Shown here in pieces: positions 20,838 through 51,190 of a DNA stretch of 64,000 nt. The notes under the pieces were generated by a model. That model was not told the DNA's origin, made no database searches, and was given only the letters and a program-made list of their open reading frames with translations. Numbering within the stretch: position 1 is the first letter of the stretch; every line of letters starts with the position of its first letter. The position numbers and the translations under genes were made by a program. Source of the stretch: Naegleria gruberi (Eukaryota); assembly GCA_000004985.1 (NCBI GenBank), contig GG738860.1. One strand, 5' to 3'.

Positions 20838-22362
20838 ATGTTGGCCATTCATCATCATCACAAACAACAAGAACACGAATTGGAAAGTCTAAAACAAAAT
20901 TATAAATTTAATATTGAAGCAGTTTTTGATCATGAAAGTGCTCGTGATTGTTTCCGAAAGTTTTTAAAGGATAATTTGAATGAAGATCCTTTCATGTTTT
21001 ATGAAATGGTTGAAAAGTATCAAAAAACAAGATTGGACAAGAATAGATTTGATATGGCTGTGGAAATTATGAATACTTTTATTGTTGTGAGTGCCAAACA
21101 TGAATTAAACTTGTCAATGACTATTAGAAATGATATTCTAAAGAATTGGAAGGTGATTCAGGAGCTAAATGAAGGGAAATCTGCTGAATTAATGGAATGT
21201 CCAACTGACTTGTTCCAAAAAGCTCAGAATGTCATCTTTTCCGAATTGAAACAAGATAATTTTCCAAGATTTATCGATTCTGAACAATTTGTAAAATATT
21301 TAAAGAAGGAAGCTAGAAAATCACAATTCAAGGGCTCACCAGCAACATTGTTAGACTTGTTGGGATCGAAAAAGGCAATGGAAAGGTCAGATAGTGGTCT
21401 ATCACATGAATTGACTGAATCCGGCTCTTTGGAAGACATGTCAGTGGTAGAAAACAAACCTTCAACTATTGCAGATAATGATAGACCTCTTGTTGATCCA
21501 CATTCTGTCTACATTTCATCAAAGGATTATGATATTGTGAATGAATTGATTTCTTCATTGAATGATAGTAGTAGATGGAAAGTAGTTGAAGAAAAGACAG
21601 GTATGAAAACATTGACCAGTGCTCATAATTATTATCTGAACCCATCAGATGGAGCTCTTCCTTTAATTTGTTTCACTGGTCTCGCTAAGGGAAATCACAA
21701 GGAATTATTTAATTTGATTTTTTCACAACATTTCGAAAAGAAAATGAGTGCTCTCCAAAAGAGGAAATTACAATTGGACTATATCAAAATTAATCCAGAG
21801 AATGGTGTGGATTATCCTAATTCAATAATTTACTCGGAACTCGATGTATGTATTCTTTTCAATTCTCAAATAATAATTAATTGAATTATTACAACAGACT
21901 CACTTTCCAATATCTAAAAGAGACCTAGTACTAGCCAAGACAGTTATACCAGATCTTTACAATCCAGAAACTGATGATTTTGATCGATATTCCATAATTC
22001 AGAAACCATGCACTCATCAAGATGCTCCAATCTCTAAGGAATTTATCAGAGTTTCACTCTTCTCAGCAATAATTGTAGAGAAAAAGACTAATGACACTTT
22101 GAGATACTACATGTTTGATTTTATGGATTTGAAAGGAAAAGTTCCAAAGAAACTCTTATCAGGAATTGCACGTTTTGCTGCTAAGGAATTTCATAAATAT
22201 CTCCAAAAACAATTTATCAATCCCAGAGATGGACGAATCAAATCACCCTCAGCCGATTCACCAACAGAAGAAGAATTATATAGCTCTGAAGGAATGGTTG
22301 AGTTGCTTCATGATCATATCAATTACATTCGAGAACACATTCTCCCAAAGAATACACTCTAA
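20838..22362 (+). CDS. RGS-domain protein with C-terminal START/Bet-v1-like lipid-binding domain, 2 exons (paralog A)
   Basis: Exon 1 is 20838..21845 (ends ...SELD at a GTATGT donor). The intron 21846..21897 is 52 nt. Exon 2 is 21898..22362. RGS signature: FDHESARDCFRKFLKDNLNEDPFMFYEMVEKYQK. The C-terminal exon (...YYMFDFMDLKGKVPKKLLSGIARFAAKEFHKYLQKQF) looks like a START domain end. A paralog lies at 49633..51190 on the minus strand. Confidence 0.65.
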
Positions 22363-22981
22363 TTTGTCTAAATTTAATTATGTTGTGAAGGACAAGTTTT
22401 TTGATAAACATAAATTCAAAGAGATTTATTATTGGAATCATAACTAAGGAAAGAAAGCATGTTATATGATGTTTGAAGTTTCAATTTCGATTTGATCAGA
22501 AAATAGAAAATGAGAAACCAAAACTTGCATCCATCAATTCAGGAGTTAAATATTCAATTTATAGAAGGGTGATCAACCTAATCAATATCTTCAAACAAAA
22601 CCTGAACCAACAAGATTCTGTCTTCGTTGCCTTCACTGTTCATACAGTCAAAGACTGTAGCGGGATTGTCGTCATATTCCTGGCAGGCTTCCCGTCCAAT
22701 GAAACCTAAAAGAATATCCAAAAATTAATGTTACTAAATTGTTAATAACTTAATTACTGAAAGTTTGTATTGAGTTGGTCGTGGATCGATTACAGAGCTT
22801 AATAGGTTAACCACTTTAAGTATTACTAAGTAGCATTAAGTTTTGCAAAGAAGTTCCATATTCTTTATATTCATTGCATTGATTTACCTTTGCTATTAAT
22901 CGTGACTCGTTATATTTGGAAAAGATTCGTCGTGCCAATGCTATCATGTTAATGGACACAATGGAAGATGATGAACTGAAT

Positions 22982-23100
22982 GGCTACGGCCATATCACGA
23001 TGAATGCACCTCATCCCGTCCGATTTGAGAAGTTAAGCATCGTCGAGCCACATCAGTACTGAGGTTGGAGACAACTTGGGAACCTGTGGTGCTGTAGTCT
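22982..23100 (+). rRNA. 5S ribosomal RNA gene (copy 1)
   Basis: GGCTACGGCCATATCACGATGAATGCACCTCATCCCGTCCGATTTGAGAAGTTAAGCATCGTCGAGCCACATCAGTACTGAGGTTGGAGACAACTTGGGAACCTGTGGTGCTGTAGTCT is 119 nt. Helix I pairs 5' GGCTACGG with 3' CTGTAGTC. It is very similar to D. discoideum 5S (CATCCCGTTCGATCTGATAAGT...AGTACTCTGGTTGGAGACAAC...GGGTGCTGTATACT). A T5 run follows at 23114..23118, consistent with a Pol III terminator. Confidence 0.85.
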
Positions 23101-23617
23101 ATTTAAATTCAACTTTTTAGATGTCGATTTTCAGAACAATTTGAAAGTTCAATAAACTTGTGAATAATTAATGCTTCAAAGCTTATAAAAAGTTTAACCA
23201 CAATTATTAATAGATTTTAAATTAATTGAATACATAGAGAGATCAACATTCATCATTCCATAGCAATCACACTGCAATCCAACAACCAAAGGTATCAGCA
23301 AAAGGCAACTTATGGGTTAGGGTATTCGATTGCTGTGAAGTGGGTACACTAGCTCAGTTGTCTTTTTTTCTATTTCCCAATCAATGAGTGCTTTTGGAGT
23401 ATGTTGATACATTTATTATTTACAAACTTTTTTGTTACAAATTTCAATCGAAATGCCTGAGAAATTTTTTAAAATGAAAGTGCCCAATCATTGATTATTT
23501 TCTCTATGGTTTTAAGAAATGAAACTTTGAAAATTGAATCTTAGCTAGATTACATATAATTTATCATATAATGATAAAATTAAATGTCAAATATAGGAGA
23601 TGGAGTCAAAAATTAAT

Positions 23618-23688
23618 CTCGAGTGCCGGGAATTGAACCCGGGTCGCCAGAGTGACAGTCTGGAATGCTACCACTATACCACACCCGA
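23618..23688 (-). tRNA. tRNA-Asp (anticodon GUC), copy 1
   Basis: Minus strand: TCGGGTG TG GTAT AGTGGTA GCAT T CCAGA CTGTCAC TCTGG CGAC CCGGG TTCAATT CCCGG CACTCGA G. It has a 7-bp acceptor stem (one G-U), a perfect anticodon stem, U33, GTC anticodon, A37, and a T-arm with TTCAATT loop. One D-stem mismatch. A T5 run follows the 3' end. Confidence 0.8.
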
Positions 23689-24251
23689 TTTCACATGTTG
23701 TATCACCAGTAACAGTATTTGTAGTTGTTCAAACGGATTACCATAAAAGGAACCTTAGTGTTTCTTTTTAATATAATTATACTTACATATATGTATACCT
23801 ACTGAGAATGGATCCATACAATCGATTACTCCAACGAACTAAATTTTGAATCTGCTAATTGTCAACAAATGATATTGTTAAACAAAATACAAACACTATG
23901 AAATGCACAACTTCATTCTAAACATTGTATTAGAAAAATTGGAAATAGGAAAGAATCGGTAAAATTGTCTCATAGTGATTCTCTCTTGTTTATGGCCATA
24001 AATACTTTTTTGGACAGTTTCGTATGAAATTGGGTTTTGTAATATTTATTTTCTATGACATGTCATGCATAATTTCTTGTACTTGCCATCTCAATGGCAC
24101 ACAAGGGTCACAACAAATTTTTTCTTCAAGAGGCACCACCTCCTTCTTGCTTGTTATTTCCAAATTTAAACTATGCGTGCTGTCAATAAACTGAAAAGCA
24201 AATGTCAAATGTTTTCTCTTCATCGCTTAAAAAAACAAACACACAATAACA

Positions 24252-27200
24252 ATGGCAATTGGAATCTCGTTCATTCCTTTGGCTAGTTACACAATTTTGT
24301 GTATTATCATGCTAATTGTTGTTGGTGGTGGACATGTTTCGTCAACATTAGCTGAAGAAACTAAACCTTTCCCAGTAATGAGAATGTTTAATTTGAAAGC
24401 AAGCCATCATTCCACCTCCACAACAAGTGATGATTCCATCTCCATGGTTTTAGGAAAGATTAAACAACTTCCTTTCATCCCAACTACCATGCACCCATTC
24501 ACCAGCAATTCCCAATTGACCAAAGCAATCGCTTCAGATCCTTACGATTTGGCTGAATATCCTCACTATAAGAAAGTCTCTGAACAACAAGTTAGAAGCA
24601 TGTACTCTAATATTGTCAATAGCAAAGCATCTAAAAGAAGTATCAAGAAAAATCTTGACATGTTGGTTACAGAAAGTGTTGATTATGTCAACTTGAATGA
24701 TGTTTCTCGTTTTTCAGCAATGGGATCTTTGCATAGATATTCTGTTGATGCAAATGTTTTATCAGGTGTTGCTTCATTGGATTATGAGCAAAATGTATGG
24801 GATGTCACATGTTCTGTCCTGTCAGATGAACAAACTGAAATTGTTGTTGATTTTGCAAATGGTCATACAACTGCCATGAAATGGGTACCAGGTACAAGAA
24901 TTATCATTGGAAAGCAATGGAATTGTTATGGTGATTTGACTGATCAACTTTACAATAAGGATCAAGCAAGATTTTACTTGATTTTGACAAGATCTATTAT
25001 CGTAACAGATGAAAACATGTTGAGAATTAAATTCCTCACACAACCACTCACCTTCTCTCAATTATTTATGAATGGTAGAGTTGAATATTCTTCCACACCT
25101 CTCTTGACAGAATCTTTGGACGAAACTAATGTTTTCACTCAAGGTGCATCTTCAAGAAGTCTCAGATCAAGAAAGGCACAATTTTCTTACACTAAAAGAA
25201 TGGCAGCATTCAATTTCAATTACAATGATGCAACTGGTCAACCTGTCAATGATGAAGTTACCATGTATGATCAGGATGGTTTGAAAATTATTTGTGAAAA
25301 GTGTTATGCTTATTTGAATACCGAATTCAGAGTAGAATTTGAGTTTTCATGGACTCAATTACAAGTTACCAAGGCAGAAGCATCTGTCGGTGGTCAATGG
25401 AAGGCAACTGCCAATGTCAAGGCCAGTATTACAAAATCTTTCCAAAAAAAGATTGGTCCAAACACTATTATTCAAACTCCACCAATTGGTTTGACATTCT
25501 TCATTTGGGTAATTCCAGTTTATGTAGATTTCACTCCAAAACTTCAATATTCCTTCAATTTCCAATTGACTGGTACTTTGGAATATTCCAGAAAGTTTGA
25601 TATGGCCTATGAGAAGTATATTGGTTTCTCATATACACCAGAAGCAGGTTATAATAAGGTTACTAGAGGTGATGATGCCATTTCCTTCACAAGTTCTTCA
25701 CCTGGTCTTCGTATTGAGCTCGATGGGTCAATTGAGGTTGCACTCATTCCAGCATTGGATATTACTTTCTATAAATTGGCAACAGTTTCGATTGGAATTG
25801 TGCCATCTTTGAAAGCAGATTTACATGCAGAAGGTATCATTTCCTCACTTGATAATTACAAGGCATTCGTTAGTGTCAAATGTTCTTACAAGATTGGTTT
25901 GACATTTGATGTTTTAATCAAGAACTTTGAATTTACTTTATTAGATTATCAACCAATTGAAAAATTGAGTGGAACCTATTCCATCCAATCAGCATCCTAC
26001 AAGGCAATCAATCCAAATGATCAAATCTATTCCAAAGATAATTTACTCCCAACCATTCCAGACACAGCAACAACTTCCAACACCATGTTCTCATTCGAAA
26101 TTAGTGGATTGACAGGTAATTACTACATGGAATATCAATATCAAGATATCAAATTGAGCCCATTGCTATACAGAACTGCACCAACTCAATCCTGTGTTTC
26201 AGGTTCTGTCTGTAAAATTGCCGAATTGAAACCTGACTTTAGTTATTCCTATCTTTACTTTAGATTTTTGAAGGATGTTCCATTGTGGTTTGATGATACT
26301 GTATTGGTGGATTATATTGAGCAGAAGAATTATGTTACTACTCAATCGAGTCAAACCATATTTGGTAATACTAATGCTAAAGTTATTGTAAAGCCAACTG
26401 ATTTGACAATTTCATTTTCGAATACTCCAACTAATTCGTTTAAATTACCAACTGGTATTAGTACTATTAATGTAAAATTATCTCCAATCAATAGTTTGTA
26501 TTACATTTCATTTACAACAGATAGTGCCATTTCCATCACAAACGTTGCCATGCAATTTAGCTCAGATTCGAATGGTTTCCATTATGCTTTCAATGGAACT
26601 CTTCCTGGAGGTACAATTTTAATTTCAAATTCTGTTTCTGACAATAATTTGAAATTCCATCAATATTTCTCATTTGATTTGACAAAGGAGAAACAAACTT
26701 TAACTCCGGCACCAACTCCTATTACAAGTATGAATGCTATTAGTTCATTCCTACAAGTGGTAAAGAAGAATTCTCCAAGATATGCCGTCTCTGCAAAGAT
26801 TAAAGGTAATTTCGTTGTCATGATCTTTGAAGGTTGGGACAATGGAGTTTCTTTCGTTCAAACTAAAGGAAGAAAGTTTAGTCAAACCTCAATTCCTATT
26901 AAGAATGGAAATGTCACTCTCACTGAGCCATTATCTTATTACTGGACTATTTCCATGGAAAATGACTTTGGTTCATCGAGTCATTACATTGCAGCTCAAT
27001 TCCTTCCTGTTGATTCGTATGGTTTCATATTGGAAAGTGTCAAGATTGATCCATATACTGAATTGAGTGTTTCAAGTTCTAATACTTTGGAGGATGTAGA
27101 CAATGCCATTATTAATCAAGTTTCTAGCGTTAATTTGTATCCTTACATGGCAGTTTCTAGACCAGATTCGAATAGTTTCACTGCCAGATTAGGTAACTCT

Positions 27201-28610
27201 GTATTTGATGTTTTTAACAATTTAAAGTCTCAAATCTCACTTTCCATTCAAAAATCTGCTCGTATCCCCATTGACAATTCCTATCTCAACGCCGACGGCT
27301 CATTAGCTCTTTCACTTTCCTCCTCAGCCAACGTTACAATCTTTAACAATTACAAATTATTGAATGGTATGGCATCTGTTGGAAAGAAATTCGAAAGTGC
27401 ACTTTCATTTGCAGTTTCATGTGATACCTTATTGAGTGTTATTGGTGATTTGAGTAGATCTGGTGATATTTTCATTAGAATTTTGGATGGGTTGACCAAT
27501 AGAGCTCTTGAAAATAGAGGATTTTCCATTAGTTTGGAATTGGCAAAACCAAACTCTGATATAGTTTCAATTCATATGGTTAATTCCAAATCTGGTTTGA
27601 ATGAGGCATTGTTTAATGTTGATTCACCTTCTAAAATCTTGAGTTCATGCAATTCGAATCCAACCTATTATGTCAGAGTTATTCTCACACGTTTGGATGT
27701 TTCTCTCTCAAGTAAGACAGTTCAAGTAGAATTCTCGTTCAGTAAGAAGGTTCTTAGCACTCTCCCACAAACAAGAAGTATTCTATCCGAATCCATTGAT
27801 CCAAAGACGAAAGGTATTTCCATTTTGGATTTGAGTGATTTAATTCAAAAAGAAAAGAGTTTGGGAAGTATTGGTATTGTATTGCAAGCTAATACTCAAA
27901 ACTGCAATATTGACATGTATATTAATAGTAATAATGCAAGTGCTCCTCCATCTTTCTTTGATCCAGCAACAATATTCGATTCCACTTCAAGAAATTCCCT
28001 CACTTATGAAGCATTGCCAATTTCCTTCCTTTCTTCATATGGTTCCAGTGTCATGCTTTATTCTGAAAGTGCATGTACTTTTGATTTATCCTATTCTCAA
28101 TTGAAACTTACCTATTTGACAATGAAATTTATAGATTTGAAGGGAAGTGCAGTTGATAGTGTGATTTTCTATTCAAACACCTCAACAACCATTCAATTAC
28201 TTATCAATGATGAAAATCATTCATTCGAAAAGACTTGGGTAACTTCACTTCAATCAAATCCATCATTGATTTTCTCAATTTTCAAATCTACAAAGAAATC
28301 AGATGGAACAGCAGCTAAATTGAGTGATTATTTCAAGAGTGCTGTTTGTAATTTAGTTAATGCTCAAACTCTTCAATTCGAAATGATTCCAAAGAGTGGA
28401 GTTGTCTTTACCAATATTTTATCAATTGAATTCAATGCTCAAAATTCAATGTTCACATCAAGATATAATTTGAGATCATCAAATGTTGTTAGTTTGGGAG
28501 AGAATGTTCAACCTATTGTTTACAAATCTACATCTTCTGGTCAACCAAAGGGAGGACAATCTGGAAGAATGAATGGAGGAAATGGCTTGAATTTGTTGTT
28601 GGTTTGTTAA
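24252..28610 (+). CDS. Large secreted or surface protein of unknown function (1452 aa; signal peptide, S/T/N-rich, possible GPI-type C-terminus)
   Basis: Single uninterrupted 4.36-kb ORF. N-terminal signal peptide or anchor: MAIGISFIPLASYTILCIIMLIVVGGGHVSS. It is rich in predicted beta-strand-like alternating segments with many N-x-S/T sites. It ends ...GQPKGGQSGRMNGGNGLNLLLVC, a short hydrophobic tail after a Gly/Ser-rich stretch. No known domain was recognised by eye. Its 5' flank is the shared 5S/tRNA repeat. Confidence 0.6.
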   Translation: MAIGISFIPLASYTILCIIMLIVVGGGHVSSTLAEETKPFPVMRMFNLKASHHSTSTTSDDSISMVLGKIKQLPFIPTTMHPFTSNSQLTKAIASDPYDLAEYPHYKKVSEQQVRSMYSNIVNSKASKRSIKKNLDMLVTESVDYVNLNDVSRFSAMGSLHRYSVDANVLSGVASLDYEQNVWDVTCSVLSDEQTEIVVDFANGHTTAMKWVPGTRIIIGKQWNCYGDLTDQLYNKDQARFYLILTRSIIVTDENMLRIKFLTQPLTFSQLFMNGRVEYSSTPLLTESLDETNVFTQGASSRSLRSRKAQFSYTKRMAAFNFNYNDATGQPVNDEVTMYDQDGLKIICEKCYAYLNTEFRVEFEFSWTQLQVTKAEASVGGQWKATANVKASITKSFQKKIGPNTIIQTPPIGLTFFIWVIPVYVDFTPKLQYSFNFQLTGTLEYSRKFDMAYEKYIGFSYTPEAGYNKVTRGDDAISFTSSSPGLRIELDGSIEVALIPALDITFYKLATVSIGIVPSLKADLHAEGIISSLDNYKAFVSVKCSYKIGLTFDVLIKNFEFTLLDYQPIEKLSGTYSIQSASYKAINPNDQIYSKDNLLPTIPDTATTSNTMFSFEISGLTGNYYMEYQYQDIKLSPLLYRTAPTQSCVSGSVCKIAELKPDFSYSYLYFRFLKDVPLWFDDTVLVDYIEQKNYVTTQSSQTIFGNTNAKVIVKPTDLTISFSNTPTNSFKLPTGISTINVKLSPINSLYYISFTTDSAISITNVAMQFSSDSNGFHYAFNGTLPGGTILISNSVSDNNLKFHQYFSFDLTKEKQTLTPAPTPITSMNAISSFLQVVKKNSPRYAVSAKIKGNFVVMIFEGWDNGVSFVQTKGRKFSQTSIPIKNGNVTLTEPLSYYWTISMENDFGSSSHYIAAQFLPVDSYGFILESVKIDPYTELSVSSSNTLEDVDNAIINQVSSVNLYPYMAVSRPDSNSFTARLGNSVFDVFNNLKSQISLSIQKSARIPIDNSYLNADGSLALSLSSSANVTIFNNYKLLNGMASVGKKFESALSFAVSCDTLLSVIGDLSRSGDIFIRILDGLTNRALENRGFSISLELAKPNSDIVSIHMVNSKSGLNEALFNVDSPSKILSSCNSNPTYYVRVILTRLDVSLSSKTVQVEFSFSKKVLSTLPQTRSILSESIDPKTKGISILDLSDLIQKEKSLGSIGIVLQANTQNCNIDMYINSNNASAPPSFFDPATIFDSTSRNSLTYEALPISFLSSYGSSVMLYSESACTFDLSYSQLKLTYLTMKFIDLKGSAVDSVIFYSNTSTTIQLLINDENHSFEKTWVTSLQSNPSLIFSIFKSTKKSDGTAAKLSDYFKSAVCNLVNAQTLQFEMIPKSGVVFTNILSIEFNAQNSMFTSRYNLRSSNVVSLGENVQPIVYKSTSSGQPKGGQSGRMNGGNGLNLLLVC

Positions 28611-28789
28611 TGACAATCTTGTTGAATATTGTTTTATTGTTGTAATTGAATAAAAACTTCATCTATTCATTGAATGATCATTGTGTATTAATGAATAATA
28701 ATAATTAATATTGAATTTAAATTGAAACACGGAAATGAAATTCTAAGATAGTAATTCCGAATACAAAAACAAAGAAAGACAAAACAAAA

Positions 28790-28870
28790 CGTTGAGGATG
28801 GGATTCGAACCCACGCGGATTACTCCACCAACTTAGCAGGCTGGCGCCTTAACCACTCGGCCACCTCAAC
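28790..28870 (-). tRNA. tRNA-Ser (anticodon GCU), class II with long variable arm
   Basis: Minus strand: GTTGAGG TG GCCGAGTGGTTAAGGC G CCAGC CTGCTAA GTTGG TGGAGTAATCCGCG TGGGTTCGAATCCCATCCTCAAC G. It has a 7-bp acceptor stem, GCT anticodon with U33 and A37, and a T-arm identical to eukaryotic tRNA-Ser. It is followed by TTTT. Confidence 0.85.
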
Positions 28871-30569: not shown

Positions 30570-31334
30570 TTAAGCATTGGTCAATCTAGTCTTCAAGACA
30601 CGATCTTCCAAACAAACACAAAAGCTTGGAATATTGACAGTCTTTGGAAGTGGGCTGTTAATAGCAAAACAATCCCAATCATCTTCTTCTCTATCTTCAT
30701 CATTTACCAATTCAACTTCAATTTCATCACCTCTGACAGCAATAACTTTACCCAATTTACCTTGTAATTGTGGATCGACACTTTGGAGTAAAGCCATTTC
30801 ATCATCAACATTGATGAGGACTGTATCATTCTTCTTGAGTAATCTGCTTGTATTAGTATTAGAAACAAATCTCTTAATAGTTGATGATGAAGAAATAATT
30901 GAAGCACTTCTTGTAGATTGCATCTTCTTTTGCTTGTGAATACCTCTTGCTGTTGTATTATTTGATGATTGCATCATGGACATGAAGGAAATTCCCTGAT
31001 GTGGTTTATAAGATGAGGAGTACATATCCATTGAGGAATCATTATTATTCATCATTTGGTTACCAGTGGCATTAACTCTTTTCAAGAACATTTTGTATTG
31101 CGTTGTTGTTGGTTGCGTTGTTTTTTTTCGATGTGAAAATGTCTGATCGTTTTCCATAAATTTATTGCGTTTGTGCAAGTTCCACAAGCAACTGGCTTCC
31201 GCTGCGTGTTCAAAATCGAGCTTAAAATAGAACTTCAAAAATGTTTTGCTGCATACGGAATTCGTTTGGGCGCCAAAGAATTTGATGAGTGTGGAAAAAG
31301 GATTCCGTGAGAGTGAATCTTTTCTGCAAATCAA
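30570..31334 (-). CDS. Hypothetical protein (S/N/T-rich, acidic C-terminal beta-barrel-like segment); start codon uncertain (internal Mets at MENDQ / MFLKRV possible)
   Basis: 254-aa minus ORF. The C-terminal segment LINVDDEMALLQSVDPQLQGKLGKVIAVRGDEIEVELVNDEDREEDDWDCF looks globular. The remainder is low complexity. No family was assigned. Confidence 0.35.
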   Translation of the reverse strand: MICRKDSLSRNPFSTLIKFFGAQTNSVCSKTFLKFYFKLDFEHAAEASCLWNLHKRNKFMENDQTFSHRKKTTQPTTTQYKMFLKRVNATGNQMMNNNDSSMDMYSSSYKPHQGISFMSMMQSSNNTTARGIHKQKKMQSTRSASIISSSSTIKRFVSNTNTSRLLKKNDTVLINVDDEMALLQSVDPQLQGKLGKVIAVRGDEIEVELVNDEDREEDDWDCFAINSPLPKTVNIPSFCVCLEDRVLKTRLTNA

Positions 31335-33029: not shown

Positions 33030-33079
33030 NNNNNNNNNNNNNNNNNNNNNNNNNNNNNNNNNNNNNNNNNNNNNNNNNN
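33030..33079. other. Assembly gap (50 N)
   Basis: A run of exactly 50 N separates the receptor gene fragment from the second 5S/tRNA unit. Confidence 1.
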
Positions 33080-33087
33080 AACTGAAT

Positions 33088-33206
33088 GGCTACGGCCATA
33101 TCACGATGAATGCACCTCATCCCGTCCGATTTGAGAAGTTAAGCATCGTCGAGCCACATCAGTACTGAGGTTGGAGACAACTTGGGAACCTGTGGTGCTG
33201 TAGTCT
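33088..33206 (+). rRNA. 5S ribosomal RNA gene (copy 2)
   Basis: Identical to 22982..23100 (offset 10106 bp). Confidence 0.85.
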
Positions 33207-33723: not shown

Positions 33724-33794
33724 CTCGAGTGCCGGGAATTGAACCCGGGTCGCCAGAGTGACAGTCTGGAATGCTACCACTATACCACACCCGA
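33724..33794 (-). tRNA. tRNA-Asp (anticodon GUC), copy 2
   Basis: Identical to 23618..23688. Confidence 0.8.
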
Positions 33795-40200: not shown

Positions 40201-43200
40201 NNNNNNNNNNNNNNNNNNNNNNNNNNNNNNNNNNNNNNNNNNNNNNNNNNNNNNNNNNNNNNNNNNNNNNNNNNNNNNNNNNNNNNNNNNNNNNNNNNNN
40301 NNNNNNNNNNNNNNNNNNNNNNNNNNNNNNNNNNNNNNNNNNNNNNNNNNNNNNNNNNNNNNNNNNNNNNNNNNNNNNNNNNNNNNNNNNNNNNNNNNNN
40401 NNNNNNNNNNNNNNNNNNNNNNNNNNNNNNNNNNNNNNNNNNNNNNNNNNNNNNNNNNNNNNNNNNNNNNNNNNNNNNNNNNNNNNNNNNNNNNNNNNNN
40501 NNNNNNNNNNNNNNNNNNNNNNNNNNNNNNNNNNNNNNNNNNNNNNNNNNNNNNNNNNNNNNNNNNNNNNNNNNNNNNNNNNNNNNNNNNNNNNNNNNNN
40601 NNNNNNNNNNNNNNNNNNNNNNNNNNNNNNNNNNNNNNNNNNNNNNNNNNNNNNNNNNNNNNNNNNNNNNNNNNNNNNNNNNNNNNNNNNNNNNNNNNNN
40701 NNNNNNNNNNNNNNNNNNNNNNNNNNNNNNNNNNNNNNNNNNNNNNNNNNNNNNNNNNNNNNNNNNNNNNNNNNNNNNNNNNNNNNNNNNNNNNNNNNNN
40801 NNNNNNNNNNNNNNNNNNNNNNNNNNNNNNNNNNNNNNNNNNNNNNNNNNNNNNNNNNNNNNNNNNNNNNNNNNNNNNNNNNNNNNNNNNNNNNNNNNNN
40901 NNNNNNNNNNNNNNNNNNNNNNNNNNNNNNNNNNNNNNNNNNNNNNNNNNNNNNNNNNNNNNNNNNNNNNNNNNNNNNNNNNNNNNNNNNNNNNNNNNNN
41001 NNNNNNNNNNNNNNNNNNNNNNNNNNNNNNNNNNNNNNNNNNNNNNNNNNNNNNNNNNNNNNNNNNNNNNNNNNNNNNNNNNNNNNNNNNNNNNNNNNNN
41101 NNNNNNNNNNNNNNNNNNNNNNNNNNNNNNNNNNNNNNNNNNNNNNNNNNNNNNNNNNNNNNNNNNNNNNNNNNNNNNNNNNNNNNNNNNNNNNNNNNNN
41201 NNNNNNNNNNNNNNNNNNNNNNNNNNNNNNNNNNNNNNNNNNNNNNNNNNNNNNNNNNNNNNNNNNNNNNNNNNNNNNNNNNNNNNNNNNNNNNNNNNNN
41301 NNNNNNNNNNNNNNNNNNNNNNNNNNNNNNNNNNNNNNNNNNNNNNNNNNNNNNNNNNNNNNNNNNNNNNNNNNNNNNNNNNNNNNNNNNNNNNNNNNNN
41401 NNNNNNNNNNNNNNNNNNNNNNNNNNNNNNNNNNNNNNNNNNNNNNNNNNNNNNNNNNNNNNNNNNNNNNNNNNNNNNNNNNNNNNNNNNNNNNNNNNNN
41501 NNNNNNNNNNNNNNNNNNNNNNNNNNNNNNNNNNNNNNNNNNNNNNNNNNNNNNNNNNNNNNNNNNNNNNNNNNNNNNNNNNNNNNNNNNNNNNNNNNNN
41601 NNNNNNNNNNNNNNNNNNNNNNNNNNNNNNNNNNNNNNNNNNNNNNNNNNNNNNNNNNNNNNNNNNNNNNNNNNNNNNNNNNNNNNNNNNNNNNNNNNNN
41701 NNNNNNNNNNNNNNNNNNNNNNNNNNNNNNNNNNNNNNNNNNNNNNNNNNNNNNNNNNNNNNNNNNNNNNNNNNNNNNNNNNNNNNNNNNNNNNNNNNNN
41801 NNNNNNNNNNNNNNNNNNNNNNNNNNNNNNNNNNNNNNNNNNNNNNNNNNNNNNNNNNNNNNNNNNNNNNNNNNNNNNNNNNNNNNNNNNNNNNNNNNNN
41901 NNNNNNNNNNNNNNNNNNNNNNNNNNNNNNNNNNNNNNNNNNNNNNNNNNNNNNNNNNNNNNNNNNNNNNNNNNNNNNNNNNNNNNNNNNNNNNNNNNNN
42001 NNNNNNNNNNNNNNNNNNNNNNNNNNNNNNNNNNNNNNNNNNNNNNNNNNNNNNNNNNNNNNNNNNNNNNNNNNNNNNNNNNNNNNNNNNNNNNNNNNNN
42101 NNNNNNNNNNNNNNNNNNNNNNNNNNNNNNNNNNNNNNNNNNNNNNNNNNNNNNNNNNNNNNNNNNNNNNNNNNNNNNNNNNNNNNNNNNNNNNNNNNNN
42201 NNNNNNNNNNNNNNNNNNNNNNNNNNNNNNNNNNNNNNNNNNNNNNNNNNNNNNNNNNNNNNNNNNNNNNNNNNNNNNNNNNNNNNNNNNNNNNNNNNNN
42301 NNNNNNNNNNNNNNNNNNNNNNNNNNNNNNNNNNNNNNNNNNNNNNNNNNNNNNNNNNNNNNNNNNNNNNNNNNNNNNNNNNNNNNNNNNNNNNNNNNNN
42401 NNNNNNNNNNNNNNNNNNNNNNNNNNNNNNNNNNNNNNNNNNNNNNNNNNNNNNNNNNNNNNNNNNNNNNNNNNNNNNNNNNNNNNNNNNNNNNNNNNNN
42501 NNNNNNNNNNNNNNNNNNNNNNNNNNNNNNNNNNNNNNNNNNNNNNNNNNNNNNNNNNNNNNNNNNNNNNNNNNNNNNNNNNNNNNNNNNNNNNNNNNNN
42601 NNNNNNNNNNNNNNNNNNNNNNNNNNNNNNNNNNNNNNNNNNNNNNNNNNNNNNNNNNNNNNNNNNNNNNNNNNNNNNNNNNNNNNNNNNNNNNNNNNNN
42701 NNNNNNNNNNNNNNNNNNNNNNNNNNNNNNNNNNNNNNNNNNNNNNNNNNNNNNNNNNNNNNNNNNNNNNNNNNNNNNNNNNNNNNNNNNNNNNNNNNNN
42801 NNNNNNNNNNNNNNNNNNNNNNNNNNNNNNNNNNNNNNNNNNNNNNNNNNNNNNNNNNNNNNNNNNNNNNNNNNNNNNNNNNNNNNNNNNNNNNNNNNNN
42901 NNNNNNNNNNNNNNNNNNNNNNNNNNNNNNNNNNNNNNNNNNNNNNNNNNNNNNNNNNNNNNNNNNNNNNNNNNNNNNNNNNNNNNNNNNNNNNNNNNNN
43001 NNNNNNNNNNNNNNNNNNNNNNNNNNNNNNNNNNNNNNNNNNNNNNNNNNNNNNNNNNNNNNNNNNNNNNNNNNNNNNNNNNNNNNNNNNNNNNNNNNNN
43101 NNNNNNNNNNNNNNNNNNNNNNNNNNNNNNNNNNNNNNNNNNNNNNNNNNNNNNNNNNNNNNNNNNNNNNNNNNNNNNNNNNNNNNNNNNNNNNNNNNNN

Positions 43201-43231
43201 NNNNNNNNNNNNNNNNNNNNNNNNNNNNNNN
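34262..43231. other. Assembly gap (8970 N)
   Basis: Continuous N run. All giant ORFs reported across it (34130..43276, 34159..43266, 34171..43431, 34197..43394, 34200..45386, 34232..43288) are poly-X artefacts. Confidence 1.
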
Positions 43232-46200
43232 TACTGGAACAATTGCCAAAGTCTTTTCTGCTCCATACGGTGTTAAAAGCTTCCACAAACTTGAGAATGG
43301 TAATTTTATTTTCGCAGAGAAAAATTATCCTAGAATTGCCCTTTTCAAGACCAATAGCAGCAAGATTATCTACTTGGCTGGTCAATACGAACAAGGTTAC
43401 GATCCAATCGTTATTTCTGACAATGTGTTAGCAACCACAACAAGTGTGAATCATCCTCGATCACTCTATGTAAAGAATGGAGAGCTCTATTTTGCAGATA
43501 CCTACAACTCTCTCGTGAGAAAAATCACCCTCTCAACAGGAGTTCTCTCAACCATTGCTGGTAATGGAGGTGAGCGTTTTTATGGGGATGGTGGATTGGG
43601 AACGAGTGCTTCTTTGAACTATCCATATGGAATTCACTTACATACTGATGGTTCTATCTACATTGCCGATACTTACAATAGTAAGATTAGAAAGTTAGAC
43701 TCTTCCAAAAAGATTAGCTCAGTTGCTGGAAATGGATATTTGGGATATTCGGACAATACTCAACCATTGAGAGCTTCATTCAATTTGGCAGTAAGCGTTC
43801 TCATTAACAACGTAGGGGACATGTACATTTCAGATTATGCAAACAATGTAATTAGAAAGATGAGCTCCTCTGGTGCCATTACAACTATTGCTGGACAAGC
43901 AAAGATTTCTGGTTTTGCTGATAGTTTAAATGCAAAGACTGCTCTATTGAATGGTCCATTTGGATTATATTATCAGGAATCCACACAAACTCTCTTTTTT
44001 GCTGACAGTCTCAATGGTAGAATAAGAAAGCTAACAAAGAATGGAGCAATTGAAACAGTTCTTGCTTCAATTAACGATCCAAGAGAAATCTCATTCCACA
44101 CAACCCATGGTCACATGTACTTTACTTCTGGAGGTGACCAAACCATTAAGGTTCTATTCTCCAATGGTACTCTTTCTGTGCTCAACATTCCAAAAGATTA
44201 CTACATTGGTCTCCATGTTGATTCCACTAATGATTATCTCTATGCAAGTGGTTATACATACATTTATAGATTTTCCATTGCAGGAGGTAGTAGCATTGAT
44301 CACAATCAAACCGATCCAATCATCGATAACATTTCTAAGAATTGTACTAAGGGATGTGAAAAGGGTGAATGTGTGAATGGAACTTGCGTCTGTAAGGAAA
44401 ATTATGGAGGTGAAATTTGTGATAGGCCAATGTGTTTTGGAAAATTGAGCAATGAGAGTGGTGTGTGTAATACTCACGGAGTTTGTCTGCAACCAAACGT
44501 TTGCTACTGTTACGGAAATTGGGAGGCCGAAGAATGCACCCAATGTAAGAGTGGATTTACTGGTTCTAATTGCAGAACCTGTGCCGATGGTTTTGTTGGA
44601 GAATTGTGTAATATCCCTATTTGTTTCAACGTATTTGCTAATGAATCAAACGTTTGTTCTGGACATGGTTCTTGCAAATCTCCAAACAATTGTTCATGCT
44701 TTGGAAATTGGGAGGGAGAAAGTTGTCAATCTTGTAAGGAGGGATACACTGGCTCAGAATGTGACACTCCAGTTTGTTTCGGGTTCAGNNNNNNNNNNNN
44801 NNNNNNNNNNNNNNNNNNNNNNNNNNNNNNNNNNNNNNNNNNNNNNNNNNNNNNNNNNNNNNNNNNNNNNNNNNNNNNNNNNNNNNNNNNNNNNNNNNNN
44901 NNNNNNNNNNNNNNNNNNNNNNNNNNNNNNNNNNNNNNNNNNNNNNNNNNNNNNNNNNNNTGGGTTGGAGATTGTGTGATTCCTGTCAAGCTGGATACAG
45001 TGGTTCAAATTGTGATATTCCTGTTTGTTTTGGATCAAGCGTTGAAGGAGATGGTTCTTTGGTTTGCTCAGGGCACGGTAACTGTTCAGGACCAGATATG
45101 TGCACTTGTAACGAAAACTGGTCTGGAAATGATTGTTCCACTTGTAGAGAAGGTTATTATGGAGAAGACTGCTCCTCATGTACACCTGGATTCAGTGGTG
45201 AGAGATGTGACATTCCTTCATGCTTTGGTATTTCAGCAAATGCTAGTAATGTATGTTCTGGAAATGGTTATTGTTTCAGTCCAGATTTGTGCTCCTGCTT
45301 TGAGAATTGGAAGGGTGAAAGTTGTAATCAATGCAGTAGCGATTACATTGGTGAATTGTGTGATATTCCGTCCTGTTTTGGAGTGAATGGTAATGATAGA
45401 TCAGTTTGTTCTGGTCATGGCTCTTGTATTACCCCATCCAATTGTTCTTGTTTCAATAACTGGGAAGGAGCAATGTGTGAAAATTGTCCAACAGGTTTCT
45501 CTGGAGATGACTGCAAATCCTGTGACGAAAGTCACACTGGAGAGGGATGTGATGTTCCAATCTGTTACGGCCTTGCAGCTAATAATGAAAGTGTTTGCTC
45601 TGGAAATGGCAAGTGCATTGAGTCCTCTGTATGTGTTTGTTCTGGTTTTTGGACTGGAGCTAATTGTGATACTTGTCCAGAAAAGTATTCAGGATCGGCT
45701 TGTGATGTGCCAGTTTGTTATGGAGTAAGCGCTAACGATTCTATGGTTTGCTCTGGACATGGTTCTTGTGTTGCACCTTCTCAATGTTTTTGTGAAGGAA
45801 GATGGGCTGGAGAATTGTGTGATTCCTGCGTGGCTGGATATAATGGTTCAAATTGTGAAAATCCAATCTGCTTTGGAGAATTCAACACCTCTATTGTTTG
45901 TTCTGGTCATGGTTTGTGCTCAGCACTAGATGTTTGTGTGTGTAGCGAGCAATGGGCTGGAGAAACTTGTGGCAAATGTAATTCTGGATATTACGGAATA
46001 ACTTGTGAGCTTTCTTGTGATCCACAAATAGTGAAACCATCTCTCACAATCAAGCAAGGTTCAATAATTTCCTATGTGATTGGAACTTCTATTGCTTTGG
46101 AACCAGAATTGACAATTCCATTGTGCTATGCCGGTCATTTCAGCTCCATTAGCTATGGATATGCTTCTGATTTCTTTAACCAATCTCAACTGGTTCAGGT

Positions 46201-47305
46201 TGATAAATTCCTTGTCATTGGCGAATCAACCAAGAGCTCTGGAACTTTAATTTCTAACGAAGGTGAATATTCATTCAAGGTTATTGCTACACTTGGCAGG
46301 TTGGAAATTTCCACTTCCTTTGAATTTATTGTCAAGTCCAATTTGGCTTCGCTCACTCTTGATTTCAACATTCCAAATATGCTCACTCAATCCTTTGAAA
46401 AACCTTTGGAATTTGAAGTTAAAGCCTCTGATCCAAGCTTCCCTAGTGATTTAACTGAGGGTGATTTATCACTCAATTGTTGGAATCAAGATAATCAATT
46501 GGTAGAAAAGTTGGTTGACACTGTTTTCAATCATACTATTACAGTCTCAAAACAACTCAATCCAGGGCAATATGTTTGTGAAGCAACATTCAAGAAGGAT
46601 TCCAGAGTTATTACCAAGTCAATTCAGGTTGTCCTTGTTGATGTCTCTTCATCAAATGTACTCACTGTTACTCTTAAATTGGAAGGTCAAAATCCAACTT
46701 GGGTAAATCCAACAAAAGATTTGACCATATCAGCTGATATCAAAGAATCTATTGGTCCAAATGTTGTGTATGATTGGAAATCTCCATTCCAACCAATGGA
46801 TACAACTGTCTCGAATCAATTAGTTATTCCATCCAGTCAATTAGCTCTTGGAAAGAGGTATAACATTTCTCTGATTGTTACAGATGGAAGTAAGAAGGGA
46901 TTTGGATTTATTTCCTTCAAGACCTATAGTCCTCCTTCAATGGGATCATTCTCTGTTTCTCCTCTCTTTGGTTACTCTCTCACAACCAATTTCATGCTAT
47001 CTGGTGGTGTTGATTGGATTTCTTTCAATCAAGATGTCTTGACATTTACATTCATTTATAGAAGTGTAGGTTCTTTGGCATGGAAATCATTGGCTGAAAG
47101 TTCTGTTCAAACATCTCTCAATACTACTCTCCCTTCAGGAACATGGGAAACTTCAGTTTCAGTTTCCGATTCATTCTTATCATACACAATCTATGATAAA
47201 CCAGTCATAGTCCAGGTGAATACTACAGATTTAACTGTTGCTCAATTGAATTATGTTGCCTCTAATCCAATTACTCCATCAGTCATTTCTTCATTGATTA
47301 GTTAT
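43232..47305 (+). CDS. Ectodomain of a receptor-like kinase: NHL-repeat beta-propeller, array of ~13 tenascin-type EGF-like modules (interrupted by a 172-N gap), REJ/PKD-like beta-rich region; 5' end lies in the gap
   Basis: The open frame starts right after the gap. NHL blades: SLYVKNGELYFADTYNSLVRKI, GIHLHTDGSIYIADTYNSKIRKL, GDMYISDYANNVIRKM, GLYYQESTQTLFFADSLNGRIRKL. A periodic ~60-aa Cys module follows: CDxPxCFG...N.S.VCSG.G.C..P..C.C...W.G..C..C..G..G..C. The frame continues after the N-run (44789..44960) through a Cys-poor beta-rich region with many N-glycosylation sites, up to 47305. Confidence 0.65.
44789..44960. other. Assembly gap (172 N) inside the EGF-repeat array
   Basis: N run within tandem near-identical EGF-module coding repeats, a likely assembly break in a repeat. 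Confidence 1.
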
Positions 47306-47328
47306 GTGAGCAGTGGTTCTTCTTCCAA

Positions 47329-49434
47329 GTGAAAGAACAATCAAAACAAATTGTCATGGATAGTATCAAGACATCTTTGACAAAGGAGACTCTTGACACT
47401 ACATTGACAGTTTCTTCATTGAAATCTGCCATTTCAGTTATTGATTCGGTGAGCTCAGTTGTTAATGTCTTTAGGGATAGTGAAAGTACTGTTGTTTTGG
47501 AATACTTTTCGACAGTATTACACAAGACAATATCCAATGGAATTCAAATGTCTTCTGATGATATTCAGCTATGTTTGAACTCTGCTACAAAATTTGAAGA
47601 ATTCTTCTTTGGATCAAAGAGACGAACTTCTCGTGCAGTATCTGATTCACTTGAAAAGATCACTCAGATTTATAATATTCTCACAGAAGTTCAGTTCAGA
47701 AAACTAAAGGAAGGCGAAGGCCCTTCAAGAATTTCAAGTTTATCATACTACTCGTATTGCAAATTTATGAAATCTGATTCGATTGCTCCATATTCTGATA
47801 CCATCACTCAAACTTCTCTTCAATTCTCCTTGTTGCAAGCCCTTAATACTTCAAGAGATACTTTGGGCGTTCCAGAGAATTCAATGGTATGCCTCAAGAT
47901 GTATTATGTTCAATCTTGGAGAAGTGTCATGCCAAGCTCTTATACTGTTGAGTTATCATTCTTGGATATTAAGCGTGATTATGCCTCTGTTTCAATTTCT
48001 AGTAGCCACAATATTGCAAAATTGACCATTCCAAGAATGAATACTGGAGTTGATAAGAAACAAACATGTTACCTTGTTGATACAATGAAAAAGGAAGAAT
48101 GCTCAATTTCCTCTACTAGTCCTCTTCAAATAGTTATTCAAACCACCAAGACTGGAAAATTCTTTGTTGGTTACTATGAAGATGCTGCAACGCCAATTGT
48201 TAATCCTTCCAATGGTGACGTTTCCCTCAGTGCTTTTATTGTCATATTTGCCATCATTCTTCCAATATTAGTTTGTGGTTGTATTTGTGCAGCACTTGCT
48301 ATTGTTTGTGGTTGTGCCTGTAAGAAATGGAAAGCTAGAGCAGCATTGAACAGCCATTCAATTCTCCGAAGTACTCAATCATTACCACTTCCAAATGAAC
48401 GATTGGATGTAACATTTGATGATATCAATGTCTATAATACTGGAATTAATAGTAGTCCTTTATTGCCACTCTATATTCAACCAAGTGAACTTAAACTCTT
48501 GTCGAAACTGGGAAGTGGTGGATATGGAAGTGTTCATAAGGCCTATTGGAAAGATCAACTTGTTGCTGTCAAGTCTACTCCAGTTCCAGATAACTCCAAG
48601 CAAATTGAAATTCCAAGAGAAGCTGCACTCATGTATTCATTGAAACATCCAAATATTGTTGAATGTTACGGTATTTCTATTAAGGGAAAGGAACAATTAA
48701 TTGTTATGGAATATGTTAATGGAAATTTGAATCAATTGATTGGGGATTTGTGTAGAAAATCTATCAAGATGGATTTGGATGAAAAGATTGAAATTTTACT
48801 TCAAATTGCCACTGGTATGAATTACTTGCATCAATTGAATCCTTCCATTGTTCACAGAGATTTGACTCCTGCTAATGTGTTATTTGATCCAAGAACAAAA
48901 GCTTGTAAGATTTGTGATTTTGGTCTCAGTAAGCCGCTCAACTTGGAAAATACTGAAACCAAGAATAGGAGTACCATATATTTCGTTCCTAACGAGCTTA
49001 TTTGTTGTACAGATCCAAATTTAACCAATAATCCACGTGCCATTGATGTTTACAGTTTCTCCATTCTTGCTTGGCAAGTAATCTTTGAAGACCATCCTTA
49101 TCTGTATATCAATAAGGAAAAACTCTTCTCCAACTCTAAATTCAAACACACTCCATATGTTGATGTGACCAATGACAACTTATTGGCAAGAGTTGCTACT
49201 GGATTGAGACCTGTCATTCCATTCAATGCTGATACAGTTTCTAAATGGACTCAAAAATTCATCAAATCCAAGTATGATAATGATTTGATAGCACTCTCAA
49301 TGATTGCCATAGCTCAACTCGTTCAAAATTGTTGGAACTTGAATCCTCATTTGAGACCCAACTTCCAAGATGTTAGTGATACATTACAAACATGCAAAAA
49401 TACTCTCTCCAGTAACCATCCTCTCTTAGTTTAA
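47329..49434 (+). CDS. Membrane-proximal ectodomain, transmembrane helix and TKL-type protein kinase domain; almost certainly the 3' continuation of the receptor gene at 43232..47305, joined across a 1-nt frame discontinuity near 47300..47330
   Basis: The reading frame has no ATG and opens at 47302 (the ORF track assumed a GTG start). It contains ~300 aa of extracellular sequence, a TM helix (AFIVIFAIILPILVCGCICAALAIVCGCAC followed by KKWK), and a kinase domain: LGSGGYGSVHKAYWKDQLVAVKS, HRDLTPANVLF, DFGLSKP, the activation segment, and ILAWQV...HPY. The stop is at 49432..49434. Confidence 0.7.
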   Translation: MKEQSKQIVMDSIKTSLTKETLDTTLTVSSLKSAISVIDSVSSVVNVFRDSESTVVLEYFSTVLHKTISNGIQMSSDDIQLCLNSATKFEEFFFGSKRRTSRAVSDSLEKITQIYNILTEVQFRKLKEGEGPSRISSLSYYSYCKFMKSDSIAPYSDTITQTSLQFSLLQALNTSRDTLGVPENSMVCLKMYYVQSWRSVMPSSYTVELSFLDIKRDYASVSISSSHNIAKLTIPRMNTGVDKKQTCYLVDTMKKEECSISSTSPLQIVIQTTKTGKFFVGYYEDAATPIVNPSNGDVSLSAFIVIFAIILPILVCGCICAALAIVCGCACKKWKARAALNSHSILRSTQSLPLPNERLDVTFDDINVYNTGINSSPLLPLYIQPSELKLLSKLGSGGYGSVHKAYWKDQLVAVKSTPVPDNSKQIEIPREAALMYSLKHPNIVECYGISIKGKEQLIVMEYVNGNLNQLIGDLCRKSIKMDLDEKIEILLQIATGMNYLHQLNPSIVHRDLTPANVLFDPRTKACKICDFGLSKPLNLENTETKNRSTIYFVPNELICCTDPNLTNNPRAIDVYSFSILAWQVIFEDHPYLYINKEKLFSNSKFKHTPYVDVTNDNLLARVATGLRPVIPFNADTVSKWTQKFIKSKYDNDLIALSMIAIAQLVQNCWNLNPHLRPNFQDVSDTLQTCKNTLSSNHPLLV

Positions 49435-49486
49435 CGCAACATTAATAAATTGTTACCAATAACAATTATAAAACAGTGGCAAAATT

Positions 49487-49560
49487 TGCCTCCCTTGGGA
49501 ATCGAACCCAAGACCTCTGTCTTACTAGGACAGCGCTACTGCCAACTGAGCTAGGAAGGC
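49487..49560 (-). tRNA. tRNA-Thr (anticodon AGU)
   Basis: Minus strand: GCCTTCC TA GCTC AGTTGGCAGT AGC G CTGTC CTAGTAA GACAG AGGTC TTGGG TTCGATT CCCAA GGGAGGC A. It has a perfect 5-bp anticodon stem, U33, AGT anticodon, A37, a canonical T-arm, and a 7-bp acceptor stem (one G-U). A TTTT run follows. Confidence 0.8.
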
Positions 49561-49632
49561 TCACGTTAGTTTTTGCAAAATGGCTTACATAGTTTCAAAA
49601 TTATCATTATATTGTGTTTATTTAAGGTTTGG

Positions 49633-51190
49633 TTAAAGATTCAATGAGTCTCTTATTGCTTTGTTTTGCTCTTTTAAAACTTCAAGAGATCCATCCATTG
49701 ACAAGAGCTCTTCATCTACATCCTTTGTCTTTTCAATATCCTTCTTTACCATTTTGTGCATGTCACTAGCAAACATTTTGGATAATCCTGCAACAATACC
49801 CTTTGGAACAGAACCTTTCATATCCATGAAATCAAAAATGTAATATCTGGTCGAGTTTGTTGTTTGTCTCTCAATAACAACAGCTGTGTAGAGCGACACT
49901 CGAATAAAATCCTTCTTGATTGGTGAGTCATCGTGAGCTGAAGGCTTTGAAATAATTACAAATCTATCAAATTCATCCGTTTCCTCATTATATTTATCAG
50001 GTATGATGGTTCTAGCCATGACAATTTCTCTCTTAGTGAATGGGAACCCAATCTATTAGTTTTAAGTTTTACAAATAGTATTATACATAGTAAACTTAAT
50101 CACCCAACCAAATTGAATTTTGAAAACTTACATCCAACTGATGGTAAATAATAGTATTAGGATATTCAATTCCCTTTTCATGATTAATCTTTAAATATTC
50201 CAATTGGAATTTTCTCTTATAGAATGAGTTAATCTTCTTTTCAAATGATTTCTTAAAAAATAGATTGAAAATACTCTTGTGATCTCCACTCATCAATCCA
50301 GTAAAACAAATCACTGGTAGGGCTTCTTCACCTAAATTCATATAATAATTATTAACACTGGTAAGTGTTTTGGTTCCAGTCTTTTCATCTGCCACTTTCC
50401 ACCTGTTGCTATCGTTCAATGTTGATATTAATTCTTTCAAAATTTCATAATCCTTTGGAGTGACATAGATTGAGGTATTATCAATTAGGGGTCTATCTTT
50501 ATCCTTGATGGGTGTACTCTTTGCTATTTCCTCTATAAAGCTATCACTATCACTCGAATCCTGTGAAATGCTACTGTCTGATCTATCCAATGCTTTTTTG
50601 GTCCCTAATTGTTCAAGTAATTGTGACGGAGAGTCCTTGTATTCTGGCTTTTTAGCTTCCTTCTTTAAAAAGGATTTAAATTGTTCAGATTCGGTAAATC
50701 TTGGAAAATTATCTTGTTTCAATTCGGAAAAGATGACGTTCTGAGCTTTTTGGAACAAGTCCGATGGACATTCTATTAATTCAACTGCTTTTCCTTCATT
50801 AAATTCTTGAGTTAAACTCCAAATCTTTAGAATATCTTTCCTAATGGTCATTGACAAGTTTAATTCATGTTTGGCACTCACAACAATAAAAGTATTCATA
50901 ATTTCCACAGCCATATCAAATCTATTCTTGTCCAATCTTGTTTTTTGATACTTTTCAACCATTTCATAAAACATGAAAGGATCTTCATTCAAATTATCCT
51001 TTAAAAACTTTCGGAAACAATCACGAGCACTTTCATGATCAAAAACTGCTTCAATATTGAATTTATATCGTTGAATGAGAGAATCGTCCAAACCAACTGT
51101 TGGTTTCTGCGGTTGGCCTGACAGGTTATTCAACATTTTTTTCTTATTAGTTTCGGATGAGATAACTATTGTCTTCCAACACAATACCAC
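49633..51190 (-). CDS. RGS-domain protein with C-terminal START-like domain, 2 exons (paralog B, inverted relative to 20838..22362)
   Basis: Exon 1 is 51190..50132 (ends ...YHQLD at a GTAAGT donor). The intron 50131..50053 has a TAG acceptor. Exon 2 is 50052..49633 (IGFPFTKREIVMARTIIPDKY...). The RGS core YKFNIEAVFDHESARDCFRKFLKDNLNEDPFMFYEMVEKYQKTRLDKNRFDMAVEIMNTFIVVSAKHELNLSMTIR is identical in protein to paralog A. Exon-2 START-like sequence: YYIFDFMDMKGSVPKGIVAGLSKMFASDMHKMVKK. Confidence 0.65.

Follow-up and report, generated by a model that had tools for sequence, protein, structure and literature searches.

Probable ectopic gene conversion between two ancient, inverted RGS-START paralogues of Naegleria gruberi

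Near-identity that is sharply bounded within otherwise diverged paralogues, and that extends to the synonymous sites, is known from the arms of the human Y palindromes, from globin and opsin duplicates and from yeast inverted-repeat substrates. We analysed a stretch of 64,000 nt of nuclear DNA from Naegleria gruberi (GenBank assembly GCA_000004985.1, contig GG738860.1), hereafter the window, which carries on one scaffold two inverted paralogues, gene A (+) and gene B (-). The two genes are convergent, tail to tail, have two exons each and encode an RGS domain followed by a START-type domain (RGS-START). They share this kind of bounded near-identity. As in other conversions between inverted paralogues, homology runs out at one edge of the near-identical tract, and the mosaic that follows the tract suggests repeated events. 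In contrast to palindrome arms, which are homogenised throughout, near-identity is limited here to 221 nt and a 67-nt patch within one coding domain. For this locus in a heterolobosean amoeba, we found no earlier description of conversion between paralogues. Ectopic gene conversion between two ancient, inverted members of one lineage of RGS-START genes (lineage 1) is, with high probability, the best explanation of our results.

Comparison of the two genes by BLASTN paired positions 20901-21833 of A with positions 51067-50144 of B at 79.6% identity. In the true register, in which position p of A corresponds to position 71968-p of B, the 221-nt tract (Table 1) contained a single mismatch, at 20909 (TTT/TTC, Phe24, synonymous), and within it a perfect run of 212 nt (A 20910-21121, B 51058-50847). 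At the 5' edge of the tract, codon 21/22, the alignable sequence also ends; 5' of codon 22 and 3' of the stop codons A and B could not be aligned and gave chance matches only. The other long repeats of the window are unrelated to the A/B homology. A preliminary description of this DNA had paired 20897..21115 with 51075..50857; the tract to which it pointed is present, but this pairing is 4 nt off register and, taken literally, gives about 25% identity, which is the random level. One synonymous T/C had been given as the sole difference in the tract and ACT/ACC as the point of divergence, and both statements are correct, the latter corresponding to the first mismatch 3' of the tract, at 21122. 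The divergence there had been called abrupt, which is too simple: A and B are 84% identical over the next ~200 nt, a second near-identical patch with one mismatch (at 21230, synonymous) lies beyond the tract and the synonymous differences form a mosaic.

We then determined the proportion of synonymous differences (pS, Nei-Gojobori) between A and B by codon segment. pS was 0.028 for codons 22-94 (one difference in 36 synonymous sites and no non-synonymous difference), 0.52 for codons 95-123, 0.09 for codons 124-145, 0.15 for codons 146-165 and 0.67-0.76, a saturated level, for codons 166-490. The contrast in synonymous divergence inside and outside the tract, a comparison that the preliminary description had proposed, was thus 0.03 against 0.70-0.76 for the 3' two-thirds of the genes. 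A mosaic with such steps agrees with several conversions of differing age or extent, which would all lie in the first ~430 nt of homology. In codons 146-165 (21273-21332) the proportion of non-synonymous differences (pN) was 0.23, higher than the pS of 0.15, and six changes were found in three adjacent codons (VKY in A, KSF in B; 21291-21298). This could mean that the protein changed rapidly following an older conversion, or it could be small-sample noise.

The results of our permutation tests showed that none of 20,000 permutations of the aligned sites over the homologous coding sequence reached the 212-nt run (longest run, 48). When sites were permuted within the RGS region alone, again none of 20,000 reached the observed run (longest, 150), and when only the third codon positions of the RGS region were used, 3 of 20,000 did so. 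The binomial probability of finding at most one difference in 37 synonymous sites was 4e-18 at the background rate and 1e-4 at the rate of the RGS region.

The same identity could be produced by an assembly or consensus chimera, the reads of one paralogue having been recruited into the other over ~220 nt. The scaffold is indeed gapped, and it contains a direct repeat of 1,182 bp (22974-24155 and 33080-34261, 99.9% identical) with a 5S rRNA gene (+) and a tRNA-Asp gene (-), the second unit of which is one whole 1,182-bp contig with gaps on both sides. This contig is probably redundant or misplaced, and not a genuine second unit. Neither gene has an independent assembly on record. However, both arms of the tract lie deep in long, gap-free contigs with locus-specific sequence on either side, and one difference, at 20909, is kept within the tract. 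A typical Sanger read is longer than the 221-nt tract, and single reads should therefore reach the unique flanks. The second, 67-nt patch and the graded pS values (0.03, 0.52, 0.09 and 0.15) are those expected of staggered biological events and not of mis-recruited reads. A chimera is therefore very unlikely, yet it is the most serious of the rival explanations.

A recent inverted duplication of the whole gene, followed by very fast divergence everywhere except in the 5' RGS part, was considered next to the phylogeny of the genes, for which neighbour-joining trees were made on short segments only. Comparison of A and B with the lineage-1 orthologue of N. lovaniensis showed that their relationship changes along the gene. 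In the tract the two proteins were 100% identical to each other and 69% identical to the N. lovaniensis orthologue, with a bootstrap of 100 for a clade of A and B. In the rest of the RGS region these values were 76%, 61-62% and 100, and in the START part of exon 1 they were 61%, 50-56% and 71. In the START part of exon 2, A and B were 50% identical to each other and 55-56% identical to N. lovaniensis, and no clade of A and B was obtained. The trees are thus discordant along the gene. The clustering of A and B in the RGS region, and weakly in START exon 1, would agree with a recent duplication, as would the result that no orthologue of B was found outside N. gruberi, N. lovaniensis included. 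In contrast, pS is saturated from the linker on, which selection on the protein cannot cause, and in exon 2 the two paralogues are less similar to each other than either is to the N. lovaniensis gene. This makes a recent duplication highly improbable. The 3' parts of A and B are as distant as the genes of different Naegleria species; the duplication is old, and the 5' similarity is secondary.

Assignment of B as the positional orthologue of the second, lineage-2 RGS-START gene of N. lovaniensis (Nlov_2, P0156) was rejected. START exon 2 of B was 56% identical to lineage 1 and 38-39% identical to lineage 2, the same identities as were found for gene A, and B is thus a lineage-1 member by sequence. 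N. gruberi has yet another paralogue of the RGS part (P0008, 221 aa, 57% identical to A), on an unplaced 1,824-bp contig outside the window. A one-residue insertion (KKVCLNE) is common to P0008 and L003, a metagenomic relative, and lineage 2 has a residue at the same position (KKDCLNE).

Over the 74 codons of the tract, comparison of A or B with N. lovaniensis and with two metagenomic relatives (L002 and L003) gave pS values of 0.67-0.79, and the closest pair of orthologues gave 0.53, which is not below the value for the rest of that gene. The tract is therefore not under constraint at the nucleotide level, and the identity of A and B within it reflects recent sequence exchange. Purifying selection on nucleotides, by which an RNA or regulatory element or an extreme codon bias would hold the 221 nt identical with no exchange, agrees with the tract being the most conserved part of the protein (pN of 0 and many columns invariant in the family), but it is hardly credible when orthologues vary at these codons as much as elsewhere and when an Rfam scan of the tract gave no family at the gathering threshold.

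The claim of gene conversion made in the preliminary description is thus upheld by the low pS of the tract, by the saturation of its codons between orthologues and by the restriction of a clade of A and B with a bootstrap of 100 to the RGS region. Ectopic (interlocus) gene conversion, in the form of non-reciprocal homologous-recombination repair with the other copy as template, would have homogenised the 5' RGS-coding ~430 nt of A and B. This would probably have occurred more than once: the youngest event would be the 221-nt tract with its one difference, and older or patchy events may have left the intermediate pS mosaic to codon ~165. The paralogy, the domain folds, the mosaic of divergence, the lack of nucleotide constraint among orthologues and the synteny of A with its N. 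lovaniensis orthologue are results, whereas we infer the recombination mechanism and the number of events, and likewise the GTPase-activating protein (GAP) activity and the lipid binding discussed below. Loss of heterozygosity has been reported in Naegleria genomes (PMC9928731), which indicates that homologous recombination operates in the genus.

Several points weigh against this interpretation. The comparison is one of two sequences without a close sister strain, which are too few to give the donor, the direction or the number of events. A and B belong to different contigs, which the scaffold links over three gaps, so that the distance between them and their inverted orientation rest on scaffolding. 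Two exact-pattern scans of metagenome contigs for the tract gave no match, and each of the two proteins is recorded from a single contig. The GC content at third codon positions is not raised in the tract, and the signature of GC-biased conversion, which is not a required one, is thus lacking. The AlphaFold2 model of A, used for the domains below, is of moderate quality (mean predicted local distance difference test score, pLDDT, of 67 from a 7-sequence alignment).

The two-exon structure of both genes and the homologous position of their introns, after ...ELD and ...QLD, had been predicted correctly, both introns being of phase 0 and of the GT..AG type. This intron position is shared with N. 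lovaniensis and with L002 and L003. The span first given for gene A, 20838..22362 (+), was also correct; for gene B the start had to be moved to the ATG at 51136, since 51190 is merely the upstream limit of the open frame. Spliced gene A encodes 490 aa and matches the annotated N. gruberi protein P0001 ('regulator of G-protein signaling 8-like protein [Naegleria gruberi]') with 100% identity and coverage. Spliced gene B encodes 474 aa, a length equal to that of P0002, annotated as 'predicted protein' in the same 536,960-bp record as P0001. The two proteins are 61-63% identical. A tRNA-Thr-AGT gene (49487-49560, -) starts just 73 nt past the stop codon of gene B, on the same strand.

Table 1. 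Coordinates of genes A and B, of their near-identical segments and of features of the interval between them (positions in the window)
Feature	Position	Strand	Details
Gene A, exon 1	20838..21845	+	variable N-terminus, RGS (aa 27-153), linker, first half of START-like domain
Near-identical tract (youngest probable conversion), arm in A	20901..21121	+	221 nt, codons 22-95, RGS helices 1-4 and ELNLS loop
Second near-identical patch, arm in A	21207..21273	+	67 nt, codons 124-145, DLFQKAQNVIFSELKQDNFPRF
Gene A, intron	21846..21897	+	52 nt, GT..AG, phase 0, after ...SELD
Gene A, exon 2	21898..22362	+	second half of START-like domain and C-terminal tail
Small conserved gene	30570..31040	-	tblastx: L001 18811-19305 and L005 (N. 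fowleri) 6231-6563 match window 31040-30570
Open reading frame, EGF/teneurin-like	31836-33029	+	
Run of N	33030-33079		50 nt
Run of N	34245		1 nt
Run of N	34262-43231		8,970 nt
Open reading frame, NHL and EGF	43233-44786	+	
Run of N	44789-44960		172 nt
Open reading frame, EGF and REJ	44963-47332	+	
Open reading frame, protein kinase	47329-49434	+	
Gene B, exon 2	50052..49633	-	tblastn against gene A exon 2: 44% identity
Gene B, intron	50131..50053	-	79 nt, GT..AG, phase 0, after ...HQLD
Second near-identical patch, arm in B	50761..50695	-	
Near-identical tract (youngest probable conversion), arm in B	51067..50847	-	
Gene B, exon 1	51136..50132	-	ATG at 51136

The N-terminal domain was recognised by the Pfam RGS profile (PF00615) with 67.5 bits in A and 61.9 bits in B (cut-off 23.9), and it is all-helical in the AlphaFold2 model of A. 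Foldseek matched this domain to RGS8 and RGS4 with template modelling (TM) scores of 0.83-0.93 (RGS8 2ihd, TM 0.83 and root mean square deviation 1.4; RGS4 1agr, TM 0.91). The first assignment of an RGS fold to both genes was therefore sound. Alignment to RGS8 showed that N91, D140 and R144 are conserved, as in the R4-subfamily proteins RGS4 and RGS8, on which the predicted fold superposes; these residues are the equivalents of Asn128, Asp163 and Arg167 of RGS4, which, together with Asn88, contact the G-alpha subunit in the structure of RGS4 with Gi-alpha-1. In contrast to RGS4, the equivalent of Asn88 is Pro51, which is invariant in the RGS-START family, and compared with RGS4 and RGS8 the domain has an insertion of ~13 residues after helix 5 and a START domain fused at its C-terminal side. 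The canonical contact segments (48-51, E89-S93 and D140-R144) all lie within the two near-identical patches, so A and B are expected to present the same G-alpha-binding surface. The R4-like RGS domain is presumably a GTPase-activating domain for a G-alpha subunit, and the linker that follows it is disordered.

The profile evidence for the second domain was weaker in both genes. The Pfam START profile (PF01852) gave 14.3 bits for A, below the cut-off of 22 bits, and did not match B, for which just DUF3074 was obtained, at 15 bits. The model of A folds residues ~228-442 into one helix, nine strands and a long C-terminal helix, which is the helix-grip fold (pLDDT ~60-80 in this domain). The top 28 PDB matches obtained with Foldseek were all START domains (E 3.5e-9 to 6e-7, probability 1.0), the best being CERT (E 3.5e-9), followed by STARD10, StarD13, STARD5, StAR, MLN64 and PCTP. 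The START cut-off was passed by 6 of 10 full-length homologues, from Acrasis and metagenomes, with 24-44 bits (P0014, P0022, P0027, P0028, P0039 and P0074). The START-type domain first proposed for both genes is thus confirmed by the modelled fold and by the homologues, despite a Pfam profile that is below threshold in A and silent in B. Comparison with CERT/STARD11, STARD10 and StAR showed that the helix-grip fold is shared, while identity to solved START domains is just 11-19%, and that the N-terminal partner is an RGS domain here rather than the PH, RhoGAP, MENTAL or thioesterase partners of known START proteins. The START domains of A and B would be expected, from this fold, to bind lipids.

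An exhaustive HMMER search gave 318 cluster representatives at E <= 1e-3 and 84 at E <= 1e-10, and at least 16 of these matches align as one stretch over both RGS and START. The named members are all heterolobosean, from Naegleria fowleri (FDP41_005080 and FDP41_008183), N. lovaniensis (C9374_002439), Willaertia magna (ABK040_010692) and Acrasis kona ('STARD6'), the rest being metagenome proteins. The domain order and the length are the same throughout this family, and the intron position is kept within lineage 1. De Mendoza et al. (2014; PMC3971589) had already included START in their list of the partners with which RGS is found in divergent taxa, and N. fowleri has 79 further RGS-domain proteins besides the seven-transmembrane RGS class (PMC9283941). 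Standard model organisms lack the fusion, yet in Heterolobosea it is neither new nor rare. Its initial characterisation as an uncommon architecture did not stand, since it forms a multigene family in Naegleria, Willaertia and Acrasis and the combination of the two domains was already catalogued (PMC3971589). Within this family the tract is specific to the N. gruberi pair.

Comparison of the locus with other Naegleria genomes showed that the order of the three genes upstream of A (13.8 to 20.0 kb of the window; cyclophilin-RRM, DUF747 and TPR) is kept in N. lovaniensis as far as C9374_002439, which makes gene A the positional orthologue of that gene. The next gene after this orthologue encodes a WD40/PROPPIN protein in N. 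lovaniensis (L001, 12210-13352), in L002 (2378-3430) and in L003 (3828-4856). It was not found in the window, where a 5S gene is in its place (22363-22980), and synteny therefore ends right after the stop codon of gene A. N. gruberi has a second, inverted copy of lineage 1, gene B, whereas in N. lovaniensis and N. fowleri the first RGS-START gene is followed 8-10 kb downstream by a tandem lineage-2 gene with the same orientation (in N. lovaniensis, ~8 kb past the end of the first gene and ~10 kb from start to start). The linkage of two RGS-START genes, which the preliminary description had proposed to examine in related species, was found in both species, but the inverted arrangement was not. 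In N. fowleri an extra RGS-domain gene of 751 aa (L005, 7124-9476, +) is located immediately 5' of the lineage-2 gene, and it has no counterpart there in N. lovaniensis.

A small conserved gene is located between the two RGS-START genes of N. lovaniensis and N. fowleri, on their strand, whereas in N. gruberi it is on the strand opposite to gene A, which indicates that the locus was rearranged. Its product has 146-180 aa and no Pfam domain (L001 18763-19305, +; L005 6123-6563, +). A single block inversion was tried and failed to reproduce the observed gene order; the locus was rearranged in more than one step in the N. gruberi lineage. Beyond gene B, a predicted protein of 611 aa (54526-56361, +), beside the tRNA-Trp gene, is apparently the product of an orphan gene; no homologue outside N. 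gruberi was found in a word-indexed search of 5.8 billion proteins, and the far flank of B was not placed in N. lovaniensis.

The interval between A and B (22363-49632) has 27,270 nt, of which 9,193 (34%) are N in four runs. It had been described as an island bracketed by an inverted duplication. This did not hold, because no homology extends past the genes themselves, a third of the interval consists of gap and at least one gene in it, the small one at 30570-31040, belonged to the ancestral locus and was not imported. The repeat does not mark the borders of a unit. Four open reading frames of the plus strand (31836-49434) look like one giant receptor-kinase gene that continues across the gaps, of at least 17 kb including these gaps. 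Such a gene would indirectly support the orientation of the scaffold, and it would make the 5S contig inside it suspicious. An open reading frame of 1,452 aa (24252-28610, +) has no Pfam domain at E <= 1e-3. The tRNA-Ser-GCT gene (28790-28870, -) and the tRNA-Trp-CCA gene (54313-54383, -) are, like the tRNA-Thr gene, dispersed single tRNA genes. A 368-aa open reading frame includes a tandem repeat of ~12 units of 72 nt (56347-57222, -; 63-87% identity), each of which codes for a leucine-rich repeat of 24 residues (EGAKFISEMKQLTSLDI).

Selection could have maintained the conversion, which would then not be incidental, giving 'the same GAP head, two different lipid sensors', together with exchanges that flip the interval, but we consider this composite idea unlikely. 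Recurrent conversion could keep the A/B pair matched to one G-alpha, and with the predicted G-alpha-contact segments in the near-identical patches and START halves that differ as between species, the pair could be a module with a shared head and two sensors. The inverted 221-nt tract, with arms ~29.7 kb apart, could also support reciprocal exchange that would flip the interval, with its giant receptor kinase, tRNA genes and a 5S gene. If so, such flipping would lead to inversion polymorphism; the small conserved gene at 30.6-31.0 kb does have the opposite orientation to its counterparts in N. lovaniensis and N. fowleri.

Our results do not overturn current understanding, as both genes had been annotated already and the mechanism is a textbook one; the locus is a sound, ordinary example of a known process. 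They document the RGS-START family across Heterolobosea, in which the shut-off of G-protein signalling is linked to a lipid-binding module, and they call for caution with trees made from the RGS domain only, which would misdate the A/B duplication as recent. The pair provides a clean and statistically strong case of interlocus conversion in Naegleria, a protist for which most of what is known of sex and recombination is indirect, and adds to the evidence for homologous recombination in the nuclear genome.

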